Of a DNA stretch of 38,334 nucleotides, positions 3,405 to 37,150 are shown in pieces. Source of the DNA: a virus (Duplodnaviria; Caudoviricetes); the IMG/VR virus record IMGVR_UViG_3300035494_000073, positions 1 through 38,334 of that record. One strand, written 5' to 3'. The translations under genes and the position numbers were made by a program. Positions within the stretch are counted from its first letter, which is position 1. The number at the start of each line of letters is the position of its first letter. Below the pieces are notes generated by a model. The model searched no databases and was not told the origin of the DNA. It saw nothing but the letters and a program-made list of their open reading frames with translations.

Positions 3405-5090
3405 TTACCTCCCGTACACGCCCATGTTACGCGAGAAACCTTGCATAGGGTCAAATGCCGTGCCAGCGGCCCGCTTAATGGCATCCTGCTGTTCTTGGCT
3501 GGTGCCAGGCGGAACGTTCAGGTTAATCGTTTGGTTCATGCTTGTGTTGTTAGTCGTGCTTGCTGCGGCTGTGGCTGGCATACCTGGGCCAACAGGCGGA
3601 TTCGACGGGTAGCCAGCCATAACAGACTGGTATTCTTCTTCGTCGCCAAGACCCACCCATCCCTTGACCGTCTTGAATGCGTCTTTTATCGGGTCGGTAA
3701 CAAACTTAACAGCGCTCTTGCCAATGTCTTGGATCATCGTTGTAACCGTGCTGAATGCCGACTTGAACGCGTCAATAATTGGCTGAACAAGCCCGTTAAA
3801 CATCGTTGTAAACAATGTTTTTACATAAGCAACATAAGCATCCCAAACGCCGCGAACGCCTGTTAGTATTTTATCTAGACCGGCAGAGATTTTCCCTTCG
3901 TCTGACGTAAAAAGGCCGACAATAACATCCCAAACGCCTTGACCAATAGTGAGAATGTCAGCCCATAATTTTTTGATGCCGCTCCAGACCGCCTCAAGAT
4001 TGGCGAGCAATTCTTTATTCTTTTCTTTCCACTCATCAAACGGGCCAAGCCATGCGCCAATTACCGACTCACCACCGTTCATCCATTGATAAACGTCTTC
4101 GATAACAAGACCAAGCAAAGCAAGCAGGCCGACAACCAGCGTTATAGGCGACAGCAACAAGCCTAGCGCCCCGATAAACGTATTTATAACCACGGGGGCA
4201 AGCGCAGCGGCCAAGACAATTCCGAACGTTTTTAGCGCGTTTGTTGGGCCGCCAAGGAAATCTACTAGGTTATCCATTGCTTTCTCCATAGCGTCAAACG
4301 CGCCAAGGAAAAAGTTAGCCACGTTCGTAACCGCCATGCTTTCGCGGTTCATGCGGGAAATAAACCCAGAAAAACGGTTATTGATGATCGTGAAAGACTG
4401 GCTAAGCGTCAACGGCATAGCCATGAATTGCGCCTGAATGCTTGGGCCGATTTCCTGCAATGCTTTTACTAACATATCGGTTGTCATCTTGCCATTCCTA
4501 GACGCTTCCATGAATGACGCCAGCCCATCGGTATACCCCATAGCGTTCGCCAAGCCTTCGGTAAACGCCCGTGGCATAGCTTCCATAACGGCGCGAAATT
4601 CATCGCCGTCTAGCTTGCCCTTGTTAAACGCTTGGGATAGCTGAAGCATGGCGGAGGCTTGTTCAGACGATGCGACACCACCAACCACCATAGCTTGAGA
4701 AATAGTGTCGATCACGCCAAGTAGCGAATCTTGATCTTCAATAAGCCCTTGTGTTGCGTTTCCGATGCGAATGTAAAGGTTAGCGTAAGCGTCAAGGTCT
4801 TGGCGCGCGGCTGTAGCACGTTTTGCCACCTCATCAAATGCTTGCCCTGCCGTACCAGACGTTTGCGTCATCTGGCCCATACGAGCCTCTAGCGACTGTA
4901 CGTTATCAGCCACAGCGGCTAGCCCACGCAACCCCTGAAAACCAACAAACGCAGCAAGCAGGGCGCGCACTTCGACAGCAGCCTGACTAGCCTGGTTTTT
5001 GATGCGACTAACCGCACCCTCGGCCTTTTTTGCCCCAGATTGGTCTACGCTAAAACCCAGCCGCGTTATTAGTTCTCGAACGGTTGCCAT
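3405..5090 (-). CDS. Tape measure protein
   Basis: 561 aa, Ala-rich and helical; tape-measure domain (QLSQAFNKGKLDGDEFRAVME), hydrophobic segment and aromatic-spaced repeats. Confidence 0.93.
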   Translation of the reverse strand: MATVRELITRLGFSVDQSGAKKAEGAVSRIKNQASQAAVEVRALLAAFVGFQGLRGLAAVADNVQSLEARMGQMTQTSGTAGQAFDEVAKRATAARQDLDAYANLYIRIGNATQGLIEDQDSLLGVIDTISQAMVVGGVASSEQASAMLQLSQAFNKGKLDGDEFRAVMEAMPRAFTEGLANAMGYTDGLASFMEASRNGKMTTDMLVKALQEIGPSIQAQFMAMPLTLSQSFTIINNRFSGFISRMNRESMAVTNVANFFLGAFDAMEKAMDNLVDFLGGPTNALKTFGIVLAAALAPVVINTFIGALGLLLSPITLVVGLLALLGLVIEDVYQWMNGGESVIGAWLGPFDEWKEKNKELLANLEAVWSGIKKLWADILTIGQGVWDVIVGLFTSDEGKISAGLDKILTGVRGVWDAYVAYVKTLFTTMFNGLVQPIIDAFKSAFSTVTTMIQDIGKSAVKFVTDPIKDAFKTVKGWVGLGDEEEYQSVMAGYPSNPPVGPGMPATAAASTTNNTSMNQTINLNVPPGTSQEQQDAIKRAAGTAFDPMQGFSRNMGVYGR

Positions 5091-5120
5091 ACTTTACCTT
5101 AAACAAAAGCCCGGAACAGG

Positions 5121-5381
5121 CTACTTCTTCCGGGCTATTTTATCCTGTTCAAACGCTTGAATGTCACATTCCATTTGCCAAAGCGCATTTAGTTTCATCA
5201 GATGTTCCGGCAACACCTCGCCAGATAAAACGCCCTCTAGCGTACATTCTTTGGCGCGGATAGGTCGCCATATCCATGATTCTGATTCCAGCGCCTCGTC
5301 TAACTTCCCGTAGTTGGGTTGCTCGATTGACCGACGCCTTGCCGGAGTCCAAAGCGTTCGGTAATCTGGAGAAAAAAAGGG
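5121..5381 (-). CDS. -1 frameshift extension (gpGT-like) of the tail assembly chaperone
   Basis: In-frame slippery C CCT TTT TTT at about 5382-5372. The -1 frame stays open to TAG at 5123-5121 and reads ...GKLDEALESESWIWRPIRAKECTLEGVLSGEVLPEHLMKLNALWQMECDIQAFEQDKIARKK*. Confidence 0.75.
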   Translation of the reverse strand, partial: PFFSPDYRTLWTPARRRSIEQPNYGKLDEALESESWIWRPIRAKECTLEGVLSGEVLPEHLMKLNALWQMECDIQAFEQDKIARKK

Positions 5382-5755
5382 TGAAAGTTATACCTCGCCA
5401 CTTCCCAGATTAATTCATACAGATCAAGCAAGTTTTCAGCCGTGAAAACAATATCAACATCGGCAGGCGACTTGATGACGCGCTTGTGCTCGGTGCTGTA
5501 TACCTTGGCTTTTTCAAACATCGGGAAAACGATAGTGCGGAACGTTTCTTCACTCAGGTTTTCAGCCAAGACAGCCGCCGCCTTGGATACGTCCAAATCC
5601 ATAATGTCGGTAACTTTGCCCTCTTGCCCTTTGATCGAAGCAAACAGCGGCAGGACGATTTTCTGGATTTTCAGCAGCAACAAATTAGCGTCAAACGCAT
5701 TCATGCGAATGGCTGTGTATTCTTTGTTTCCGACTATGAAAGTTTCTTGGTGCAT
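5300..5755 (-). CDS. Tail assembly chaperone (gpG-like)
   Basis: 151 aa between tube and tape measure genes; slippery sequence near the 3' end. Confidence 0.8.
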   Translation of the reverse strand: MHQETFIVGNKEYTAIRMNAFDANLLLLKIQKIVLPLFASIKGQEGKVTDIMDLDVSKAAAVLAENLSEETFRTIVFPMFEKAKVYSTEHKRVIKSPADVDIVFTAENLLDLYELIWEVARYNFHPFFLQITERFGLRQGVGQSSNPTTGS

Positions 5756-5852
5756 TGTTTTTCCCTATGTTAGAATACGGGCACGGTTGCCGCGTATTCC
5801 TTCCCTGTTGCGCGGGCCAGACAACGCCGGAGCCGCCCGTAACCGGCACTAC

Positions 5853-5880
5853 ACCCCGCCCTAGAGCGGGGTTCTTTTTT
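5853..5880 (+). terminator. Hairpin ACCCCGC/GCGGGGT with T-run on the + strand
   Basis: 7-bp GC-rich stem, 6-nt loop, then TCTTTTTT; the U-tract is antisense to the late genes. Confidence 0.45.
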
Positions 5881-6319
5881 ACACGTTGTTGCCACCGATA
5901 AACATCGTCAAATCAGCAGCATCAAACACCCAGATACGTTCGCCGGGTTCTTTGCTGAATACCAGTGCTGGCAGGGTCTTGATCCACGCCTGAGACGCCG
6001 CAGCCAGCGACGTGCCCGACAAGTCAGCGCAGCCAAACGGCACAACAACAGAACCACCGGCCAGGTTATCGGTTGCGAACAGGGCAGACAGCAGCACGTT
6101 AGCGTTACTGGTTGCCAGTGTGCGCACTTCAATGGTGCCGGAGCGGTTAGCGTTTCGCGTGCGTGCTACTGCGCCATCTGCACCAACACGCTTAAAGTAC
6201 AAATCCTCGTCAAGTTTGACGGTAATGTAATCGCCATCAGACCAGCCATCAATGACAACCGGCCCCATGGTAACGATCAATTTGGACGGGTCGAAGGTAC
6301 CCGAGAGTTCAGCGGCCAT
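5879..6319 (-). CDS. Tail tube protein (DUF3277-like)
   Basis: 146 aa, VGADG..R..N.NRSGTI motif; follows the sheath gene. Confidence 0.88.
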   Translation of the reverse strand: MAAELSGTFDPSKLIVTMGPVVIDGWSDGDYITVKLDEDLYFKRVGADGAVARTRNANRSGTIEVRTLATSNANVLLSALFATDNLAGGSVVVPFGCADLSGTSLAAASQAWIKTLPALVFSKEPGERIWVFDAADLTMFIGGNNV

Positions 6320-15391: not shown

Positions 15392-15546
15392 TTCTTCCCC
15401 TCCCAAGCCCGGGCCACTTCCCGCGCCCCTAGGCTCATGTTGCCGTTACCGGCCCGCTTGAATGTCTCGCGGGTGGCGCGGTCTAGCATGATGTTGTAGC
15501 GCTTCATTGGTGCGGGTTTTTGTGGGTTTTTTTGTGGTTTGCTCAT
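15388..15546 (-). CDS. Small RHH-like DNA-binding protein (not in the ORF track)
   Basis: MSKPQKNPQKPAPMKRYNIMLDRATRETFKRAGNGNMSLGAREVARAWEGKK*, 52 aa; ATGA overlaps at both ends. Confidence 0.65.
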   Translation of the reverse strand: MSKPQKNPQKPAPMKRYNIMLDRATRETFKRAGNGNMSLGAREVARAWEGKK

Positions 15547-15953
15547 ACTTCCCCCATAGTCATCCGATTAAACACCTCACGAAACGCAAGCGGGTCACGC
15601 ACGTTCTTGATCTTCGCTTGCGGATTTCCGGCGCCTGCCACAATGACGGTGCCGAAATTAAACAAGCGCCCTAGGATGCCTTGCTGCACCTGCACCGATT
15701 CCACCCGCTTAACCGGCAACTCCACCGTGTCGCGCATGATGAACCCGTACTTTGCCACGATTCGCTTATCGGTAATGGCAAGTTCCGTGCTTGCGTAGAT
15801 AATCCACACGGCTACAAAGAACACCAGCCCGAACCCGGCCAGCGGCAACGTGACAACGCCGAAGAAAATCAGGTGCCACAGCGACCACAGGCTAACGCGG
15901 CTCTGGTGGCGGATGGTTTCGTTTGGTAGTAGGTTTTTGGATAGGTAGGACAT
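15543..15953 (-). CDS. Membrane protein with bacterial PH domain (bPH_2/DUF304-like)
   Basis: Two TM helices, then TELAITDKRIV.KYG and VQQGILGRLFNFGTVIV motifs. Confidence 0.8.
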   Translation of the reverse strand: MSYLSKNLLPNETIRHQSRVSLWSLWHLIFFGVVTLPLAGFGLVFFVAVWIIYASTELAITDKRIVAKYGFIMRDTVELPVKRVESVQVQQGILGRLFNFGTVIVAGAGNPQAKIKNVRDPLAFREVFNRMTMGEV

Positions 15954-19065: not shown

Positions 19066-19453
19066 TGGGGTCAACGATCACAAACTGAACGGTTTGCGGT
19101 GGGGTCATGGTGCCGTCAGACGATGTAAGGTCAGTTTGTGTGCGGTCGCTGTAGCCGTGATTCGCCAAAACTAGCTTTGCAATCGTGGCGTTAAATTTGT
19201 TAGCCATGCCGCCATTTAACGCTAAATGTTCCTGTTTTGCGTCAATTGCTTGTAACGTGTCCGAAAAATCAGGGAAATTGTCGCGCCATTCGTAGATTGT
19301 TGACCGCGAAACGCCAAGATAACAAGCAAGACCGGCAACGCTGGGGATTACTCCCTCGTTGTCTTTGTAGCCTTCCAAAAGGTATCGATTTGCAGCCTCT
19401 TGCATAGCAGGTGTATACCCGCTAGGCCTGCCAACTGCTCTTTTCTCGGTCAT
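19046..19453 (-). CDS. terS: Terminase small subunit (P22 gp3-like DNA-packaging protein)
   Basis: GRPS.Y, PSVAGLACYLGVSRSTIYEW and FNATIAKLVLANHGYSD motifs; directly upstream of terL. Confidence 0.9.
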   Translation of the reverse strand: MTEKRAVGRPSGYTPAMQEAANRYLLEGYKDNEGVIPSVAGLACYLGVSRSTIYEWRDNFPDFSDTLQAIDAKQEHLALNGGMANKFNATIAKLVLANHGYSDRTQTDLTSSDGTMTPPQTVQFVIVDPNDDAEG

Positions 19454-19467
19454 ATCAAAACCCTGTT

Positions 19468-19489
19468 AAAAACGCCCGTATCGTGGGCG
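19468..19489 (-). terminator. Terminator/attenuator-like hairpin just before terS
   Basis: Minus strand CGCCC-ACGATAC-GGGCG-TTTTT. Confidence 0.45.
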
Positions 19490-19841
19490 AGTCGTGAGTC
19501 TGCACGGTTTCCCGCATCCGTCTCAATTATACCCGCTGAAGTGTCCGACGGGTTGATGGTGGCCGGTGCCTATCTCCGATCCGTTGAACCTGTTTCGCTT
19601 TCGCTACTTCTGCATTGGCTGCTGGTTCACCATCACGTCTGGCGACTGGCTGAGAAATTTTCTACATTTTGGTTTCGTCCTTCTCTATTACCTGACGGAA
19701 CGGCCAAGCGCCCGACCAATCGCCATGCGTGATAGCCCCCGTCTTTCCTGGGTGTCTGCGGCACGCTAATTTTCTCCGCCCGTCACCGCAGTTAAAGATT
19801 GCGGCTCTCCTGCGCTCTTACCCGGTGCAGGTTAGGTTTGA

Positions 19842-19921
19842 TGGTGTCTCTGCGAAGAATCGAACTTCGCTTGGATTCAGCTTCGACAGGATTTCTCCCT
19901 GCTGACTAGCCATTCAGAGCC
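19842..19921 (-). tRNA. Degenerate tRNA-like element ending in ACCA (pseudo-tRNA)
   Basis: Acceptor GGCTCTG/CAGAGAC (1 mismatch), T-arm CGAAG-TTCGATT-CTTCG, 3' ACCA; shrunken D arm; non-canonical anticodon loop GAGAAAT. Confidence 0.4.
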
Positions 19922-20194
19922 AACCCTTACTCTGTTAAGAGCAACCATCATCAAGGCGGGCCGGACTCGAAACCGGCGTACTTTACTTACCCGCGTTTCT
20001 GCGCAACCTACGGGCTTGTCTGGTCGAACCGCATTAACCTAACCGCCTTGATGATCCGACTACTCTTACCCGGTAATCGGTTTAGGTCACAGCCGCAACA
20101 TAGCTGTAAATTCAGGTTAGCTCACAACCTGCGGCCCCGATGCAAAAACAAGGTGGCTCCTTAAAGTTTCTGCAAATGCTCTTGCCGTGTGATT

Positions 20195-20203
20195 ATTATA
20201 CAC
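20195..20203 (-). promoter_or_regulatory. Promoter -10 (GTGTATAAT) reading into the structured RNA array
   Basis: Same GTGTATAAT as at 17658, 21513, 28876 and 29548; no clear -35. Confidence 0.5.
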
Positions 20204-21700: not shown

Positions 21701-21897
21701 ACCGTTAGTAGACGGTTAGTAAACCGTTAGTAACGTAAGTCATTGATTTTATTGATCGTTACACCGATACACCGATATTTGCGTTTTGCATTTGTGCTTT
21801 TCTATGTGTCTGTGTGCGTGTATCTGTGTATCGGTGTATCGGTCTTTGTTTTCAATAACTTACGTTACTAACGGTCGTGTATTGGTCTACTAACGGT
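21701..21897. repeat. About 200-bp nested inverted repeat with iterated motifs; probable replication origin
   Basis: Perfect arms 21701-13/21885-97 (13 bp), 21723-40/21858-75 (18 bp) and 21763-77/21829-43 (15 bp); just downstream of the primase gene. Confidence 0.75.
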
Positions 21898-24518: not shown

Positions 24519-25271
24519 ATGAGCCTGTCCACAATGGTAGAAAAACCTACCGACAAACCCGTCATTGCCACGATCTTGGGCGATGCGGGCCTTGGCAAAA
24601 CGTCGCTTGCCTGCACGTTTCCTAAGCCGATTGTGATTCGTGCTGAGGATGGTTTGCAATCTATCCCGGTCGAACAGCGCCCTGACGCTTTGCCGCTGAT
24701 TACTAAGGTAGATCAGCTTTTCGATCAGCTTATGCTCTTGGTCAAAGAAGATCACGACTATAAGACACTTGTTATTGATTCGGTAACGGCGCTTGAGCGT
24801 CTGTTTATTCAGGACGTTATCGACAATGACCCGAAGAATCCAAAGGGAATTAACCAGGCGCTTGGCGGTTACGGAAACGGAACGGCAGCCGTAGCGGCAC
24901 AGCATGAACGGGTGCGCAAGGCCTGCGGCATCTTGCGCGACCGCAAAGGCATGAACATTGTTTTCATTGCTCATGCTGAGGTCGAAACCATCAGCCCACC
25001 AGACGATGAAGATTACAGCCGCTACAGCTTGCGTATCGGTAAAAAATCGGTTGCCCCCTATACCGATGACGTAGACCTGGTTGGTTTTGTCAAACTTGAA
25101 ACATTCACCAAAGGAGACGGCGACAAGAAAAAGGCTATTTCAAGCGGTGGCCGGGTTGTCGTATGCCATGCGACGGCCAGCAACGTATCAAAAAACCGCT
25201 ATGGCATTGAGGAAGAATTGCCTTTTGAAAAAGGCGTAAACCCATTTACCAATTACATCAACACACTTTAA
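24519..25271 (+). CDS. Sak4-like ssDNA-annealing ATPase (AAA_24)
   Basis: GDAGLGKT Walker A, TLVIDSVT Walker B, GGYGNG, IAH and SKNRY motifs. Confidence 0.88.
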   Translation: MSLSTMVEKPTDKPVIATILGDAGLGKTSLACTFPKPIVIRAEDGLQSIPVEQRPDALPLITKVDQLFDQLMLLVKEDHDYKTLVIDSVTALERLFIQDVIDNDPKNPKGINQALGGYGNGTAAVAAQHERVRKACGILRDRKGMNIVFIAHAEVETISPPDDEDYSRYSLRIGKKSVAPYTDDVDLVGFVKLETFTKGDGDKKKAISSGGRVVVCHATASNVSKNRYGIEEELPFEKGVNPFTNYINTL

Positions 25272-25283
25272 GGACTTACAGAC

Positions 25284-25820
25284 ATGTCAAACTTTTGGAC
25301 ACTTTCAGACGGCAAAACCGCCGAACAGACAACAAACTTTGATGCTGGATCAATCGACGTATTGCCTGACAATACCGACGTTTTGGCTATTGTTGAAGAA
25401 GCCGGTTGGAAAAGCGGCTATGAAGGCGCGCCCGATGTTATCAGCTTGCGCTGGTCGGTGCTGAAACCTGAAGCCTTGAAAAACCGCAAGGTTTTCCAGA
25501 AACTCAAGGTTTGCGAAACAGACCCCAAGGTATCCGACAAGGCAAAACGTATGCTCATGGCGATTGACACCAATGCCGGAGGCAAACTTGCCAAACTTGA
25601 GCGCGAACCAGAAGACAACGACTTGATGCTGGCACTCATGAACAAACCAATGGTGCTGAAAATCAAGGTCTGGAAAATGGACGGTAAGGAGGGTAATTGG
25701 GTTGCTGCGGTAAGTCCAGCGAAGAAGGCCGCGCCAGCGCAAAAGTCGGAGCCTGTTCAACAGCAACCAGAGCCGCAATCAGCTAATCTTGCAGATTTGG
25801 ATGATGATATTCCGTTCTGA
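25284..25820 (+). CDS. Single-stranded DNA-binding protein (DUF669-like)
   Basis: NRKVFQKL motif and acidic tail LDDDIPF; follows Sak4. Confidence 0.85.
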   Translation: MSNFWTLSDGKTAEQTTNFDAGSIDVLPDNTDVLAIVEEAGWKSGYEGAPDVISLRWSVLKPEALKNRKVFQKLKVCETDPKVSDKAKRMLMAIDTNAGGKLAKLEREPEDNDLMLALMNKPMVLKIKVWKMDGKEGNWVAAVSPAKKAAPAQKSEPVQQQPEPQSANLADLDDDIPF

Positions 25821-25836
25821 CCGCACATAACAAAAC

Positions 25837-25854
25837 CCAGCCCTTCGGGGCTGG
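25837..25854. terminator. Stable hairpin (UUCG tetraloop) after the SSB gene
   Basis: CCAGCCC-TTCG-GGGCTGG. Confidence 0.55.
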
Positions 25855-25869
25855 TTAAAGGATACAAGC

Positions 25870-26730
25870 ATGGAACAAAACACACCAGAATGGTTTGAAG
25901 CGCGCAAGGGGCGCGTCACGGCGTCAATGGTAGGCGCAATTTTAGGTCTTGCGCCTTATATGAGCCGAGACGATGCCATGCGCCGCATGGTGCGAGACTA
26001 TCATGGCGCACCGTCGGAGTTCACGGGGAACGATGCAACCGCCTGGGGGACGCATAACGAAGCAGGCGCACGGTTTGATTTTGAATTGGAAACCGGCATT
26101 TCCGTCCAACAATGCGGGTTTTTTGCCAAAGACGATTGGGCAGGGGCCAGCCCGGATGGGTTGCTTAGCGATTCTGGCCTGATTGAAATCAAATGTCCGT
26201 TTGGAATCCGCAACGACGAAAACCCAAAATTCAAAACCGCCGATGAACAACCGCATTACTTTGCGCAGATGCAGTTTCAAATGTGGGTAACAGGCAGAAT
26301 GATAACGCATTTTTGGCAATGGACGCCAAAGAAAACATACCTTGAAGTTATCCATTATTCGCAACCATGGATTGATGAAAACCTGCCGGTGCTGCGTGCT
26401 TTTTACGATGAATATCTGAAAGAGCTAAACAATCAAGATCATCTAGCGCCAAAGCGCAAACCCATAGAAACCGTCAAAGCGCGCCAACTTTTGCAGGAAT
26501 ATGACGAGCTGACAACGGCCATTGAGTTGGGGGAAGCGCGTAAAAAAGAAATCATAGCCGAATTTGAAGAATTGGCCGGTGGCCGCGACGCGCTGATATG
26601 GGGCCGCAAGTTTACCAAGGTTGAAAAGGCTGGCGCGGTTTCGTATGCGAAAGTTGTTAAAGACCATTTGCCTGGGTTTGATTTGGAGCCGTATCGGGGC
26701 AAGCCATCTAGTTATTGGAAACTTTCATAA
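25870..26730 (+). CDS. YqaJ/lambda-exonuclease family protein
   Basis: QNTPEWFEARKGRVTAS, WGT.NE, GASPDG, IEIKCP and Y..QMQ.QM motifs. Confidence 0.93.
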   Translation: MEQNTPEWFEARKGRVTASMVGAILGLAPYMSRDDAMRRMVRDYHGAPSEFTGNDATAWGTHNEAGARFDFELETGISVQQCGFFAKDDWAGASPDGLLSDSGLIEIKCPFGIRNDENPKFKTADEQPHYFAQMQFQMWVTGRMITHFWQWTPKKTYLEVIHYSQPWIDENLPVLRAFYDEYLKELNNQDHLAPKRKPIETVKARQLLQEYDELTTAIELGEARKKEIIAEFEELAGGRDALIWGRKFTKVEKAGAVSYAKVVKDHLPGFDLEPYRGKPSSYWKLS

Positions 26731-28843: not shown

Positions 28844-28856
28844 TTTACACCGGCCC

Positions 28857-28893
28857 TTGCGCCGGTCTCTTAATAGTGTATAATTTTATACAT
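28857..28893 (+). promoter_or_regulatory. Promoter with palindromic -10/+1 region, copy 1
   Basis: TTGCGC-16 bp-TATAAT; TGTATAA-TT-TTATACA palindrome. Confidence 0.7.
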
Positions 28894-28913
28894 CATTAAC
28901 AGTGAGCAAAACC

Positions 28914-29161: not shown

Positions 29162-29548
29162 GTGAACCCCAACAAACTAAACCGCACCGCACACAACGCC
29201 ATCCTAGAGCCAGTCATCACGGCCATGGTCGCCATGCGCCTGAGCCGCGCAACTAGCGAGCATTACCACACGCTGGCAAGCGCGTTTCTGATTGCATCGC
29301 ACGCGGTCGAACTGACGCCACGGCACGCCCATCTAGCCGATACGGTGACGGCTGGTCTTTCGGCGTTAGGCCATGTATTCGCACGGCACGAGCAGCGCAC
29401 GATACAGGATGCGTACTTTACGGCCACGGCAGACGAACTAGACGCGATCCATGACGCGCTGGAAATTTATAAAGCCTTGCTGAAAACAACGCCAGGCAGA
29501 ACGTGGCGTCGGGCAATTCATCGGGCTATTGCGCAGATCAATAAATAG
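29162..29548 (+). CDS. Hypothetical helical protein
   Basis: GTG start after GGAGG; 128 aa. Confidence 0.65.
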   Translation: MNPNKLNRTAHNAILEPVITAMVAMRLSRATSEHYHTLASAFLIASHAVELTPRHAHLADTVTAGLSALGHVFARHEQRTIQDAYFTATADELDAIHDALEIYKALLKTTPGRTWRRAIHRAIAQINK

Positions 29549-29565
29549 TGTATAATTTTATACAT
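29529..29565 (+). promoter_or_regulatory. Promoter with palindromic -10/+1 region, copy 2
   Basis: TTGCGC-16 bp-TATAAT; 22 bp identical to 28872-28893. Confidence 0.7.
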
Positions 29566-29583
29566 TGTTAACAGGGGAAATTT

Positions 29584-30351: not shown

Positions 30352-30713
30352 CACAGCAAACCGTGCTTACAGAGACAGAGATAAACAGGCTGCAAATGCT
30401 TTCACAAGTGCTGCTGAATGATCCAAGCGACTTTAACAGGGCTGCCCGCGCCATCGAGCAAGCCGTCTTACAACAAGTGTTGTCATCGCCGCAGGCGCAG
30501 GCGATGCGATGGCAGCCGATAGAGACAGCTCCGAAGAATGGCCGTTCGATTTTCGTTATAAGGCGACACTCACACCTACCAAACACGGCCATTTACAACA
30601 CAACCATGTGTTGGTTTGAGGACTTGCATTCCGGGGATCACTTGCACGACTTAACCCACTGGATGCCCCTACCAGCCCCACCCGCCGACGCCGCAATGGA
30701 GAAACAGAAATGA
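30348..30713 (+). CDS. DUF551-like protein
   Basis: WQPIETAPKNG ... THWMPLPAPP. Confidence 0.8.
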   Translation: MTQQTVLTETEINRLQMLSQVLLNDPSDFNRAARAIEQAVLQQVLSSPQAQAMRWQPIETAPKNGRSIFVIRRHSHLPNTAIYNTTMCWFEDLHSGDHLHDLTHWMPLPAPPADAAMEKQK

Positions 30714-31357
30714 AATTTCGCAAAAAACCAGTAGTTATTGACGCTATCCAATGGACAGGCGCCAATTTAAAGGACGTAATTGACTTTACAGGTAAGCACC
30801 CGGACTTCGATAAATGGTTTGATAGTTGGGAAGCCTATTCCGAGCACGTTGCCAATGACGGGCTGAAATTCAAGATATTCACTCTTGAGGGCACCATGAC
30901 TGCCACACCCGGCGACTGGATTATACGTGGCGTACAAGGCGAATGTTACCCATGTAAGCCCGACATATTCGAGGCCACATATGACCAAGCGGATAGCCAA
31001 CCCGCCATGCCTGCGGATTCTGAATACAACATCGAAGCCGCTGCCCGTGAGCTTGCAAGACGTATGGATTACCCGTGGGAGTTTATGAACCATAGGGGCC
31101 GCATCAATATGCGTGAAATTACACAGCATGTATTGAACGCCGCCAGCCGCCGCATTGAGGAGGAATGGGGAATGATCCAAATCGAGCATGAAAACGTAGA
31201 AGAACTCAAAAAGTGGGGAATGGGGCTGTCCCGAATTATTGAGAATTGCTTCTTTTGTCATACACCCACCCGTTATTGGAACAAGAAGGCGAACCAACCT
31301 TGTTGCCCAAGCTGCTCCAAAAAGCACAAGGTTTCTGAATTCAAGGAAAAGAAATGA
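30710..31357 (+). CDS. Multi-domain phage protein (PGDYG-like N-domain plus C-terminal Cys-rich module)
   Basis: KFRKKPVVIDAIQW..TLEG..ATPGDWIIRGVQGE.YPCKPDIF..TY; C-terminal CFFC...CCPSC. Confidence 0.75.
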   Translation: MKFRKKPVVIDAIQWTGANLKDVIDFTGKHPDFDKWFDSWEAYSEHVANDGLKFKIFTLEGTMTATPGDWIIRGVQGECYPCKPDIFEATYDQADSQPAMPADSEYNIEAAARELARRMDYPWEFMNHRGRINMREITQHVLNAASRRIEEEWGMIQIEHENVEELKKWGMGLSRIIENCFFCHTPTRYWNKKANQPCCPSCSKKHKVSEFKEKK

Positions 31358-31761
31358 ACACTCACGACATTGAACTGCCGCCGTTGCCACACCTGCCTTT
31401 GAACGACCCGGCAGCAGTTTTTAAGACCGTGCATGACTGGGGCCGCGCAGCCATCGCCCACGACCGGCAGCAGCGCGGGGAGCCTGTGGCCCAAGTCGCA
31501 GTAAATGGCGATGGGTCGCAGGTATGGATTGCGCTAAAAACTCAGTGGCTACCGAAAGGCAGGCACAATCTATACGCGGAGCCACAACCCGCCGAGCCGG
31601 TGACTATCCAAACAGTCGCTAGTGACAATTCCGGCCTAACCGAATGGGAACAACGCGCCGACTTGGAAGCCGAAGAAGCGCGATCAGAACAGATTACAGA
31701 ATGGGAGCGACGAGCCGACCTTGAGGCCGAATCGGCGCGCTCTGCAATATTGGATAATTAA
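31354..31761 (+). CDS. Hypothetical protein with a C-terminal 19-aa duplication
   Basis: IELPPLP and GEPVA..LYAEPQP motifs; TEWE(Q/R)RADLEAE occurs twice. Confidence 0.7.
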   Translation: MNTHDIELPPLPHLPLNDPAAVFKTVHDWGRAAIAHDRQQRGEPVAQVAVNGDGSQVWIALKTQWLPKGRHNLYAEPQPAEPVTIQTVASDNSGLTEWEQRADLEAEEARSEQITEWERRADLEAESARSAILDN

Positions 31762-34234: not shown

Positions 34235-34311
34235 TTATCAACCTGTCTTAGGGTATCGTTTTATCGTGACACGAACGGCGGCCATGGCACGAGGTAGCCA
34301 AGCCAAATACA

Positions 34312-34860
34312 TCATGGCGCTACCGGCCAATCAATCTCATGCGGAAAACCTACCTGATCCGGAACATCACGCAAGGCTTGACGGTATACGGCCCATGCCT
34401 CAGCATTTACTGGCGCGTCAGGTAGCTGGCTGAAGTCTGAGGCTGCGAGTAGTTGGTCGCGTTTGGCGCGGGCTTGGGAGGCTAACGATTCATCTTCAGC
34501 CGCTTCGTTTTTTACCCAATCACCGTTAACAAAATCATAAAACTGGCCAGGTTTTTCTTTGTCGGTTAGCCAATCTGGAATGTCGCCAATGCCGTTATAT
34601 TCATCGTTAAGTGTGAACTTTTCGCCGGTATCGGTGCGGTAAAGTTCTGTGTTTCGGTTGTCGGCCTTGATAACCCATTGTCCTGTATTTGGTTCGCCGT
34701 ACTGTTTGTTGTTATTTACATGTACGTCAGTCTCCCAAACGGCCAATGACCCGGCAGGAATATCTGGCACAGCCACAGAAACCCCGCCGTGCGGTTTATT
34801 GGCGTATTCTTGACTGTATAAGTAGACGCCATTAGCGTCAGTCTGGTGAAAAGTTGGCAT
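34312..34860 (-). CDS. Tail fibre assembly chaperone (Tfa-like)
   Basis: W..KADNR...LY and RD.LL..SD..QLPDAP...W..YRQALRDVP.Q.GFP..IDWP motifs. Confidence 0.88.
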   Translation of the reverse strand: MPTFHQTDANGVYLYSQEYANKPHGGVSVAVPDIPAGSLAVWETDVHVNNNKQYGEPNTGQWVIKADNRNTELYRTDTGEKFTLNDEYNGIGDIPDWLTDKEKPGQFYDFVNGDWVKNEAAEDESLASQARAKRDQLLAASDFSQLPDAPVNAEAWAVYRQALRDVPDQVGFPHEIDWPVAP

Positions 34861-34908
34861 TTATGGTTCTCCGGGGGTTTTGGTTATTTTATATTGTTTT
34901 GGTTACAT

Positions 34909-34925
34909 TGACACTGCAAATGCGA
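34909..34925 (+). repeat. 17-bp inverted repeat, left crossover site (TGACACTGCAAATGCGA)
   Basis: Exact reverse complement of 35336-35352; encodes DTANA in frame. Confidence 0.92.
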
Positions 34926-35155
34926 TGGCCTTAGCAAGCAGGCAAATTGACGCGTTTCAAGGGCACCATTATTTAACACAATGGGGGAACGTTGCGGTTT
35001 TCAATACAACCAGCACAGGTGGAGCGGAGACTAGAAATGCGTCTACCAAATCCAATACTCTTGACCCGGTATCTGACGCAACCAACGGAAGCCCTAGAAT
35101 TTCTAGTGAAACCCGGCCAATCAACACCGCGTTTTTACCACTTATAAATTTATGA
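34910..35155 (+). other. Silent alternative tail-fibre C-terminal cassette (inverted, no own start)
   Basis: DTANAMALASRQIDAFQGHHY...SETRPINTAFLPLINL* aligns with the expressed tip DTANARDFGSWQIDQNKSHFH...AESRPINTAFSPIINL*. Confidence 0.88.
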
Positions 35156-35975
35156 TCGGGGAAAATGCCGTATTAATAGGTCGGGATTCGGCCCCACCGC
35201 TTGCCGTAGTAAACGATGGCTCATTGCCGTAGGGGGATCCTGGCCCGCTCGTGGTAAACCCAGATTTTTGGGTCAACCTATCGTATCCATGGAAATGGCT
35301 CTTATTTTGGTCTATCTGCCAGCTGCCAAAATCCCTCGCATTTGCAGTGTCAGCGTCAGTACCCGTAGCGCGCAAGAACATATCACGCATATCTGGCGCT
35401 TTCCAGTCGCCGCCGCCCATATCAGCGATCTTGTATTCCCCGGCAACCCAGCTACCCAACGCCACGGTTAGGCCAGACTCCTTGAACCGTGCGATTAGCC
35501 CCCCGTGGTCTGTTTCGTTCAATGTTCCGCCAATCGCTTCAACTTGCCACGGAAGCGGGGTGGGCGTCCATCCAAATTCAAACTGCCCGCAAATAGCAGA
35601 CCGATAACCTGTAAAAAACGCTGTATTCACCCACTGCCAAACGAACCCGCCGCGATCAGTAACAATAACCGGGCCGATATTGGAAGATAACGCGGAAACT
35701 TGAGAATATGTCATGATGCTAGGAATCTGCCCTAGCGAATTTTTCACATAATCCAACAACACCGACAACGCAAACGACTTATCACTCAGACCCTGCCGCA
35801 CCAAAGCAATATCAGAATCCGACAACGAAGTTGCAGCACTAAGCGCCGACAGATTGGTTTTTGTCGCGCCAAGTTTGCTGATAATTGTTGATTCGCTGGC
35901 TGCAAGGTTCAATAGCGCCGGGTTTTGCGCGATTAGCGATCTTACTTGCGCTTCTTCGGTGGGTGAAAGTGCCAT
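35142..35975 (-). CDS. Tail fibre (receptor-binding) protein with switchable C-terminus
   Basis: Collar-like PDMRDMFLR, GSWQ.D..KSH.H and ESRP.N.A tip motifs; upstream of the Tfa gene. Confidence 0.9.
   Translation of the reverse strand: MALSPTEEAQVRSLIAQNPALLNLAASESTIISKLGATKTNLSALSAATSLSDSDIALVRQGLSDKSFALSVLLDYVKNSLGQIPSIMTYSQVSALSSNIGPVIVTDRGGFVWQWVNTAFFTGYRSAICGQFEFGWTPTPLPWQVEAIGGTLNETDHGGLIARFKESGLTVALGSWVAGEYKIADMGGGDWKAPDMRDMFLRATGTDADTANARDFGSWQIDQNKSHFHGYDRLTQKSGFTTSGPGSPYGNEPSFTTASGGAESRPINTAFSPIINL
35336..35352 (-). repeat. 17-bp inverted repeat, right crossover site inside the fibre gene (codons about 209-213)
   Basis: TCGCATTTGCAGTGTCA on the + strand. Confidence 0.92.
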
Positions 35976-36419
35976 TTAAATATCTCCGAATTGACGGGTA
36001 GACCCCATCACAATAACGTCTGTGCCGCCTAATACTGGCTGATTTCCATCTGCTGTTCCGGTATCCAGCGTTAATACATTACTCGACACCACGGTAAGCG
36101 TATGAACGCCACCGCCTACGGGCTTAAAACCAACGGCCACAATGTAGTTGGCCGGGTTATCACGGTCGATTGCCTCAAGCCGGATCATGGCGTTTTCGTA
36201 GGGGAATAAGCCAACGCCGTTAGCATCGGTTACGCGGTCGCGGTTAATAAGCCTGAAAATACGCTGAAACAGCCAATTCGCCCATTGCGCCGGGAACGGT
36301 TGACCACGCGCGCCAGCCGTTTCTGGAATAAACCCTTGCGCCACCTGCGCATCAGGCGGTTGATTGACGTTCTGTTGCCCGTCAGGGTAATTTACGAGGG
36401 TTTCTGCCCATGTAATCAT
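35976..36419 (-). CDS. Baseplate/fibre attachment protein
   Basis: 147 aa, GF.P...GQP..AQW.NWLF motif typical of fibre N-terminal anchors. Confidence 0.65.
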   Translation of the reverse strand: MITWAETLVNYPDGQQNVNQPPDAQVAQGFIPETAGARGQPFPAQWANWLFQRIFRLINRDRVTDANGVGLFPYENAMIRLEAIDRDNPANYIVAVGFKPVGGGVHTLTVVSSNVLTLDTGTADGNQPVLGGTDVIVMGSTRQFGDI

Positions 36420-37150
36420 TGGAAAACACCCGGTAAGTGGTAATGGCCTATTGTACTGTCAGTATTGGGGTTATGCACCACTAAAATACTGCCGTCGGAT
36501 AACTCAAGTAATAATTGATCGTCAACGTCTAAATCACCCGGCACAACGCCGCCGAATGTCGCGCCATTCGTTGCTGTTTGTTGCCCAGTTACCTGCATAT
36601 CGGAGCCGTCTACTTCCAGATAATCGGCGTCAATATTTACAAATAATTCTGCCGGGTCTGCTTCACGGCCAAATCTGAATGGCAGCGCGGTATACGAAAC
36701 CATAACAGGAACCGTGCTAATTGCTGCGGGGCTAATATCCTGAATCACCCTCTGAATATCACGCTGCACAATCGGCCCGTTAGTAAACAACATCGTCGTT
36801 GCAGGGTATTGCTCCATGTACTGAGCATCGTCTGGCTTTGTCAGAAACGATAGCCCACGTATTAAATCTTGCGGGGTTCCCTTTGATACGTTCACAAACA
36901 CACGAAACCGAATTGCCTCCCGGTAAGCGTCATCATCGCGCCCGCTCCGTGGTTCGCCGACTATATACCCAGAGCCGTCTAATTGCGCCCCTTGCGCGGT
37001 TTCAATCCAGCGATCCGACTTCATCAAGTCAAGCGTGTTTTCGATGTTCGTAAACTCAGCCACCAACGCCGCAACAATCGCCCGTAACTTTGGCGATTCG
37101 TTGAACTGGTTGACCAGTCGGCTTTGCGCTTGGCTTTCGTAATCAAGCAT
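36416..37150 (-). CDS. Baseplate wedge protein (DUF2612/gpI-like)
   Basis: TAQGAQLD..G.IVG..R...DD..YR motif; downstream of baseplate J. Confidence 0.82.
   Translation of the reverse strand: MLDYESQAQSRLVNQFNESPKLRAIVAALVAEFTNIENTLDLMKSDRWIETAQGAQLDGSGYIVGEPRSGRDDDAYREAIRFRVFVNVSKGTPQDLIRGLSFLTKPDDAQYMEQYPATTMLFTNGPIVQRDIQRVIQDISPAAISTVPVMVSYTALPFRFGREADPAELFVNIDADYLEVDGSDMQVTGQQTATNGATFGGVVPGDLDVDDQLLLELSDGSILVVHNPNTDSTIGHYHLPGVFQ

Follow-up and report, generated by a model that had tools for sequence, protein, structure and literature searches.

In the R64/IncI1 pilV shufflon, a constant N-terminus is combined with swappable C-termini that are fused at the recombination site, and this sfx site is asymmetric, with a conserved core and right arm and a variable left arm (PMC11852207). 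The Rin shufflon of Bifidobacterium prophages uses a tyrosine recombinase to switch receptor-binding C-termini, and for the 500-bp inversion of Bb423phi2/689b-1, which has no flanking recombinase, an invertase acting in trans was already proposed (PMC6109161). Tail-fibre C-termini are likewise swapped by inversion in Mu Gin, P1 Cin, p15B Min, FRphi and BV01-like shufflons, the described examples of which all carry a flanking recombinase (PMC13418256, PMC13596623). Of the three locked isoforms of the Gin-driven FRphi fibre shufflon, a single one was able to infect the host that was tested (PMC13418256). Further prophage fibre inversions are listed in PMC9881135, whose main text does not name Achromobacter, Bordetella or Alcaligenes and whose supplements may list such loci. 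Here, a fibre cassette of this general design, with no recombinase gene in the same phage, was compared with these systems.

The window, a stretch of 38,334 nucleotides of viral DNA, encodes a myovirus that has a circular genome, with terminase, portal, capsid, sheath and baseplate genes, a primase-polymerase, a helicase, Sak4, SSB, a RecE-like nuclease and lysis genes, and judged by this gene content the phage is likely lytic. A search for cultured relatives returned nothing but a match of 103 bp to Yersinia phage fEV-1, the capsid protein is less than 38% identical to that of any GenBank phage, and no relatives were obtained with the gene at 36416-37150 as query. A bacterial PH-domain (bPH_2) gene is located between portal and terminase (15543-15953). 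The gene-poor and hairpin-rich region at 19450-20200 contains tRNA-like motifs on the minus strand (for example at about 19845-19920), neither ARAGORN nor Rfam returned anything for it, and 88-94-nt pieces of it are 87-97% identical to stretches in two genomes (G188, G121). Just past the primase-polymerase gene, an imperfect inverted repeat with 77-nt arms and an 18-bp perfect core (21701-21897) is a candidate replication origin. A 51-nt direct repeat (28852-28902 and 29524-29574; 82%) with a TATAAT motif lies ahead of small-gene clusters, and its copies are likely early promoters.

The tail-fibre gene (35142..35975, minus strand; 277 aa, PHROG tail fibre) ends within a 444-bp segment (34909-35352) between inverted copies of the 17-mer TGACACTGCAAATGCGA. 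Exactly two copies are present, at 34909-34925 (plus) and 35336-35352 (minus), and a window-wide match allowing up to three mismatches detected no others. When the genome was shuffled by triplets 30 times, the longest perfect inverted repeats found within 1 kb were of 11-15 bp, and the sole real repeat longer than 17 bp was an unrelated 18-bp inverted repeat (21723-21875). A chance origin of the 17-bp repeat was ruled out by these shuffles, by the exact-match counts and by the family data given below. Two fibre tips face each other in the segment, both in frame at DTANA; after this motif, the expressed tip A has 64 aa and tip B 76 aa, and inversion of the segment yields an open fibre of 289 aa instead of 277 aa. 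Q.D...H and E.RPINTAF.P.INL are common to both tips. Spare tip B (34910..35155, plus strand) is silent and start-less, consisting of DTANA, 76 aa and a stop in an open frame, and its C-terminal motif is intact with a score of 35.8. The first-pass annotation of this DNA had described the perfect repeat with its 444-bp segment, the in-frame starts, the tip and fibre lengths and the common end motifs, and the window-wide match, the shuffles and translation bore all of this out. It had further called the tips head-to-head, which was incorrect, as they converge, with 14 bp of overlap between their stop-carrying 3' ends (35142-35155).

At its C-terminus the fibre resembles short tail fibres in sequence (9cuy, E 6e-8; T4 1ocy, E 0.09). 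A monomer AlphaFold model of the fibre was poor (mean pLDDT 61), and Foldseek searches with this model gave no match at E<=0.001. Based on the short-tail-fibre match and on general knowledge of T4-type fibres, the variable middle of the tips probably contacts the receptor.

Both copies of the repeat hold a 9-bp core, CTGCAAATG. In the fibre-side site (35336..35352, minus strand) the core lies at 35347-35339 and the conserved arm bases of the family, G-10, G+12, T+18 and G+20, are all present. In the outer site (34909..34925, plus strand) the core at 34914-34922 is intact, while G-10 and G+12 are missing (34904 and 34926 are both T). The perfect identity of the two copies comprises the core, 5 bp to its left and 3 bp to its right. 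A third CTGCAAATGC at 20170-20179 is without family arms and likely due to chance. The outer site is followed by a 48-bp stub (34861..34908), which contains the left arm of this site and the tfa ribosome-binding region, by tfa (34312..34860, minus strand; 182 aa) and by a 77-bp gap between tfa and holin (34235..34311). The tail-fibre assembly chaperone encoded by tfa is of the type found with shufflon loci and matches that of L007 at 40% over its length and those of L030/L039 at 47-50% over residues 1-124.

The 17-mer had 38 exact matches in viral contigs, which apart from those in L022, L026 and L034 all fell within xTANAR fibre cassettes of up to eight sites; the three exceptions look like chance matches. 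With a 22-nt fibre-side pattern, 39 genome loci and 63 metagenome loci were found, and the titles of the genome loci were mostly Achromobacter, but also Bordetella, Alcaligenes, Pusillimonas, Paracandidimonas, Pandoraea and Herbaspirillum. The fibre-side pattern was contained in 138 of 158 collected loci. Requiring two or more sites and a flank of 1.9 kb or longer left 65 of these 138, which gave 56 distinct loci after duplicate removal. Each copy of the CTGCAAATG core in family loci opens an xTANAR tip, and the window has the same layout, with inverted cores that read in frame as xTANA both in the fibre gene and before the spare tip; a linked tyrosine recombinase gene, also a trait of the family, is absent from it. 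Of the 56 distinct loci, 46 encode an Rci-like tyrosine recombinase that is intact and about 330 aa long, and in the other 10 it is broken or absent; the enzyme was present in 32 of 301 genomes of one bacterial family (that of G004). L039, whose fibre module is the one most closely related to that of the window, carries eight sites at 4205-5990, including three back-to-back pairs with cores 16 nt apart. The L039 enzyme and the integrase encoded next to pilV in an IncI1 shufflon (L092) are 34% identical (104/309), and the catalytic residues R-K-H-R-H-Y are aligned between the two. The alignment to Rci covers only residues 10-283 of 384, and therefore the family enzyme, at about 333 aa, is without most of the extra C-terminal domain of Rci.

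The shufflon-like character that had been proposed for the cassette is thus supported and can be specified further: fibre shufflons of one family, run by Rci-like tyrosine recombinases, use the repeat as their site. The first-pass annotation had suggested finding the usual partner through the 17-mer and cassettes in prophages, and this search led to the same Rci-like enzyme. Because the repeat is an Rci-like site, R64 Rci was the right one among the comparisons drawn in that annotation, while Mu gin and P1 cin were not apt. Gin, Cin and Min are serine invertases, and their sites differ from that of the family. In these systems a PF00239 invertase is linked to the segment; the window has none, and the relatives of the cassette carry tyrosine recombinases.

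The usual order in the family is fibre, tips, short stub, tfa and a convergent recombinase gene. Where tfa was recognised by our script, its start lay 23-88 nt past the outer core, or 235 nt in two loci; in the window this distance is 55 nt. As exceptions, the enzyme gene directly adjoins the outer site in L007/L117, L142 and L112/L127. From the usual order it follows that the missing gene has its slot in the 77 bp between tfa and holin and not in the 48-bp stub. The length that the first-pass annotation gave for the stub was right, yet a short stub before tfa is the normal layout of the family. No remnant of a recombinase was found in the 77-bp gap.

The family is visibly active in relatives, in which sequence comparison finds the same tips rearranged. 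In 36 non-independent pairs, one tip body stands behind different left arms. The last difference on the left side lies at -1 to -4 in 35 of them, and 22 are identical from 0 to +24 (one pair has a masked left arm). The crossover therefore falls within CTGCAAATG and the right arm moves with the tip, as has been described for sfx (PMC11852207). One two-site locus was found in both orientations (L120 compared with L135/L151). Sites with atypical right arms still take part in these rearrangements (L005/L116, L072/L116), and L083, whose enzyme is intact, has an ANAM start. Nearly half of the genome loci (19/39) end 170 nt or less from a site.

Pfam and PHROG searches identified neither a resolvase nor an integrase among the 75 ORFs of the window. 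In six-frame searches, PF00589, PF00239 and PF01548 gave no match at E<=1, and the profile of the cognate enzyme gave none at E<=10; as controls, the three Pfam profiles were positive in 14, 13 and 10 of 14 genomes, respectively. The claim that the phage encodes no recombinase, for which profile searches with PF00239 and PF00589 had been suggested as a check, is supported by these results. A serine invertase, an IS110-type enzyme and a hidden tyrosine recombinase were each considered as carried by the phage and rejected on the same ORF and six-frame searches.

The fibre is a mosaic, in which an N-terminal adaptor of the phage lineage (about aa 1-83) is followed by an imported module (about aa 84-213) and then by tip A. 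The lineage adaptor (residues 1-83) was present on 24 retrieved proteins, and only three of these had the site motif. Neither the cassette nor the enzyme was found in any of 21 loci from related phages with baseplate proteins at 55-69% identity; 14 of these loci had a fibre gene in view. Over 300 nt, the downstream module has 78% identity with L086 (Pusillimonas sp. UBA3987), and none of the 401 genomes of that family gave a better match. We infer that an Alcaligenaceae-type prophage was the source of one imported module comprising the fibre end, the spare tip and tfa, and since the downstream module is nearest to L086, the host is probably an Alcaligenaceae-type bacterium as well. At 30443-31603 the window shares exact matches of 21-37 nt with several genomes of the G004 family at small accessory-gene junctions, which suggests gene exchange with prophages of this family. 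These short exact matches were rejected as CRISPR spacers, being shared accessory-gene junctions in 11 stretches without repeat arrays. No spacer against the phage was found in the 11 candidate stretches, with two candidates scored per genome, so that spacers could be missed. Two short contigs of 1.9 and 1.3 kb (P0002 and P0003) encode fibres with the lineage adaptor in which 178 of 213 residues are identical to the constant part of the window's fibre. They are the same for 214 aa up to DTANAR and then continue into different tips, a pattern that a switching sister phage would give, as would two strains.

Taken together, these results point to a two-tip Rci-like cassette that is intact but without its enzyme, is carried by a phage that is likely lytic and is seen in one orientation, and that is probably flippable only at a low rate by a prophage enzyme acting in trans; we put the probability of this reading at roughly 0.55. 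The fibre end, spare tip and tfa would have been acquired from the prophage while the enzyme gene after tfa was either not taken or lost later. A prophage of the infected cell would then supply the cognate recombinase in trans, and recombination of the two inverted cores would produce the 289-aa fibre. Fragments 82-84% identical to the L040 recombinase gene were detected in run X2, in which the phage is also present, and in run X4; at a depth of 2-3x, they link the enzyme to the community and not to the host cell. Pieces of tfa and of the outer site of an L040-like locus were found in X1, with no pieces within the enzyme gene. X3 and X4 contained only short flanking pieces of related phages and did not cover the cassette region. 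Of the three explanations offered by the first-pass annotation, use of an enzyme in trans and recent orphaning are both compatible with these data and do not exclude each other; flipping by the phage's own Sak4, SSB and YqaJ proteins is unsupported, because the site belongs to a dedicated recombinase.

It is quite possible that the cassette is instead a dead relic, orphaned, with an outer site that has drifted out of function and a spare tip awaiting decay. No inverted junction was present in assembled contigs of the tar-pit runs X1 (46x) or X2 (18x), which would be expected of a relic; assembled contigs drop rare variants, and the two runs may themselves be the source of the window. No flipped 289-aa fibre was found among the fibre homologues either. 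The outer site also points this way, as G-10 is present in 107 and G+12 in 112 of 115 sites and no other listed outer site is without both. It scores low, at the 13th percentile on the left and the 6th on the right, but not outside the span of scores of sites that have an intact enzyme next to them. Against this, both 9-bp cores are intact, G-10 is missing in six of 44 outer sites beside intact enzymes, and Rci-type sites have a variable left arm (PMC11852207).

Enzyme loss is common in two-site relatives, which again would fit a relic. The gene was interrupted by an IS, truncated, split or absent in L020, L018, L065, L067, L097, L099, L114, L131, L139 and L141, and in L031/L131 the two-tip cassette is intact and a methylase gene occupies the enzyme slot; a search for a second enzyme copy in the hosts of L031, L023, L020 and L029 gave no match in records that were 12-60% complete. 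Loss affected 9 of 25 two-site loci and 1 of 31 larger loci (Fisher p 0.003, loci not independent). Spare tips were broken in 3/11 cases after enzyme loss and in 6/109 otherwise (p 0.04, loci not independent), or in 3/10 and 4/46 when counted by locus (p 0.10), and some of the breaks may be sequencing errors. The higher frequency after enzyme loss fits decay, and L018, L099 and L141 have frameshifted spare tips. In the window, however, spare tip B is open with its motif intact, the fibre of a sister lineage occurs with two tips in P0002 and P0003, and fragments of the cognate recombinase are present in the same community, all of which argues against a dead relic.

Inversion by the phage's own single-strand annealing genes Sak4, SSB and RecE-like YqaJ (24519-26730), acting through the 17-bp repeat, is very improbable. 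These genes are present and the perfect identity extends beyond the core, but the repeat is the site of a dedicated recombinase and the same 17-bp identity exists in L007 beside an intact enzyme. These genes would also act in every infection, and no inversion was seen. For annealing proteins, 17 bp is short. We give equally little credence to the idea that the phage encodes an unrecognised recombinase, or that such a gene is in a part which the assembly lacks. Many of the small ORFs did not match any family and CheckV estimates the window to be 76% complete, but the genome ends overlap by 127 nt, each of the two runs X1 and X2 contains the whole window in a single 38,237-bp contig, the six-frame searches were negative, and the family enzyme is about 330 aa long.

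Going beyond the reading of a cassette flipped in trans, selection might maintain the recombinase-free tip switch in a lytic phage that borrows the Rci-like invertases of resident prophages. Receptor specificity would then change only after passage through a lysogen, and one site would serve as a tip-exchange standard across many unrelated Alcaligenaceae phages. We consider this extended scenario rather unlikely. If a borrowed invertase does act, the host-range switch would be conditional on the prophage content of the host, and if the window's copy is dead, it represents an ordinary case of module import and orphaning. The family itself is a widespread tail-fibre shufflon run by a homologue of plasmid Rci. 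It is relevant to which hosts Alcaligenaceae phages can infect, accounts for contig breaks in the assemblies of these hosts and provides new shufflon invertases for synthetic biology.

No description of the CTGCAAATG fibre-shufflon family was found in the literature covered, which mostly excludes subscription papers, and in the supplements of PMC11852207 CTGCAAATG occurs only twice, both times within one vector coding sequence. The family shares with the R64 shufflon the constant N-terminus with swappable C-termini, the asymmetric site and the back-to-back internal sites, which are spaced by 8 nt in R64 and by 16 nt in the family. The family core matches sfx at 8 of 11 positions (CTGCAAATGCG compared with GTGCCAATCCG). 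The R64 sfx sequence GTGCCAATCCGGT and its pilV target are not found in the window, where the target is a phage tail fibre and not a pilus adhesin, and R64 has Rci whereas the window has no enzyme. With Rin, the family shares the switching of receptor-binding C-termini by a tyrosine recombinase; Rin however acts on an unrelated rix site, TTCCCTAACCC, in temperate phages of another host phylum (PMC6109161). In the window there is neither a rix site nor a flanking rin gene, both the cognate enzyme family and the site that it uses have been identified, and the phage carrying the cassette is apparently lytic. The Mu, P1, p15B, FRphi and BV01-like systems differ from the window in their flanking recombinases. 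The window works like the R64 shufflon and Rin but is a member of neither, nor of the Gin/Cin group. Tyrosine-recombinase fibre shufflons themselves have already been published (PMC6109161); here the enzyme and the site of the CTGCAAATG family are named, which makes the long-proposed in-trans phage switch testable.
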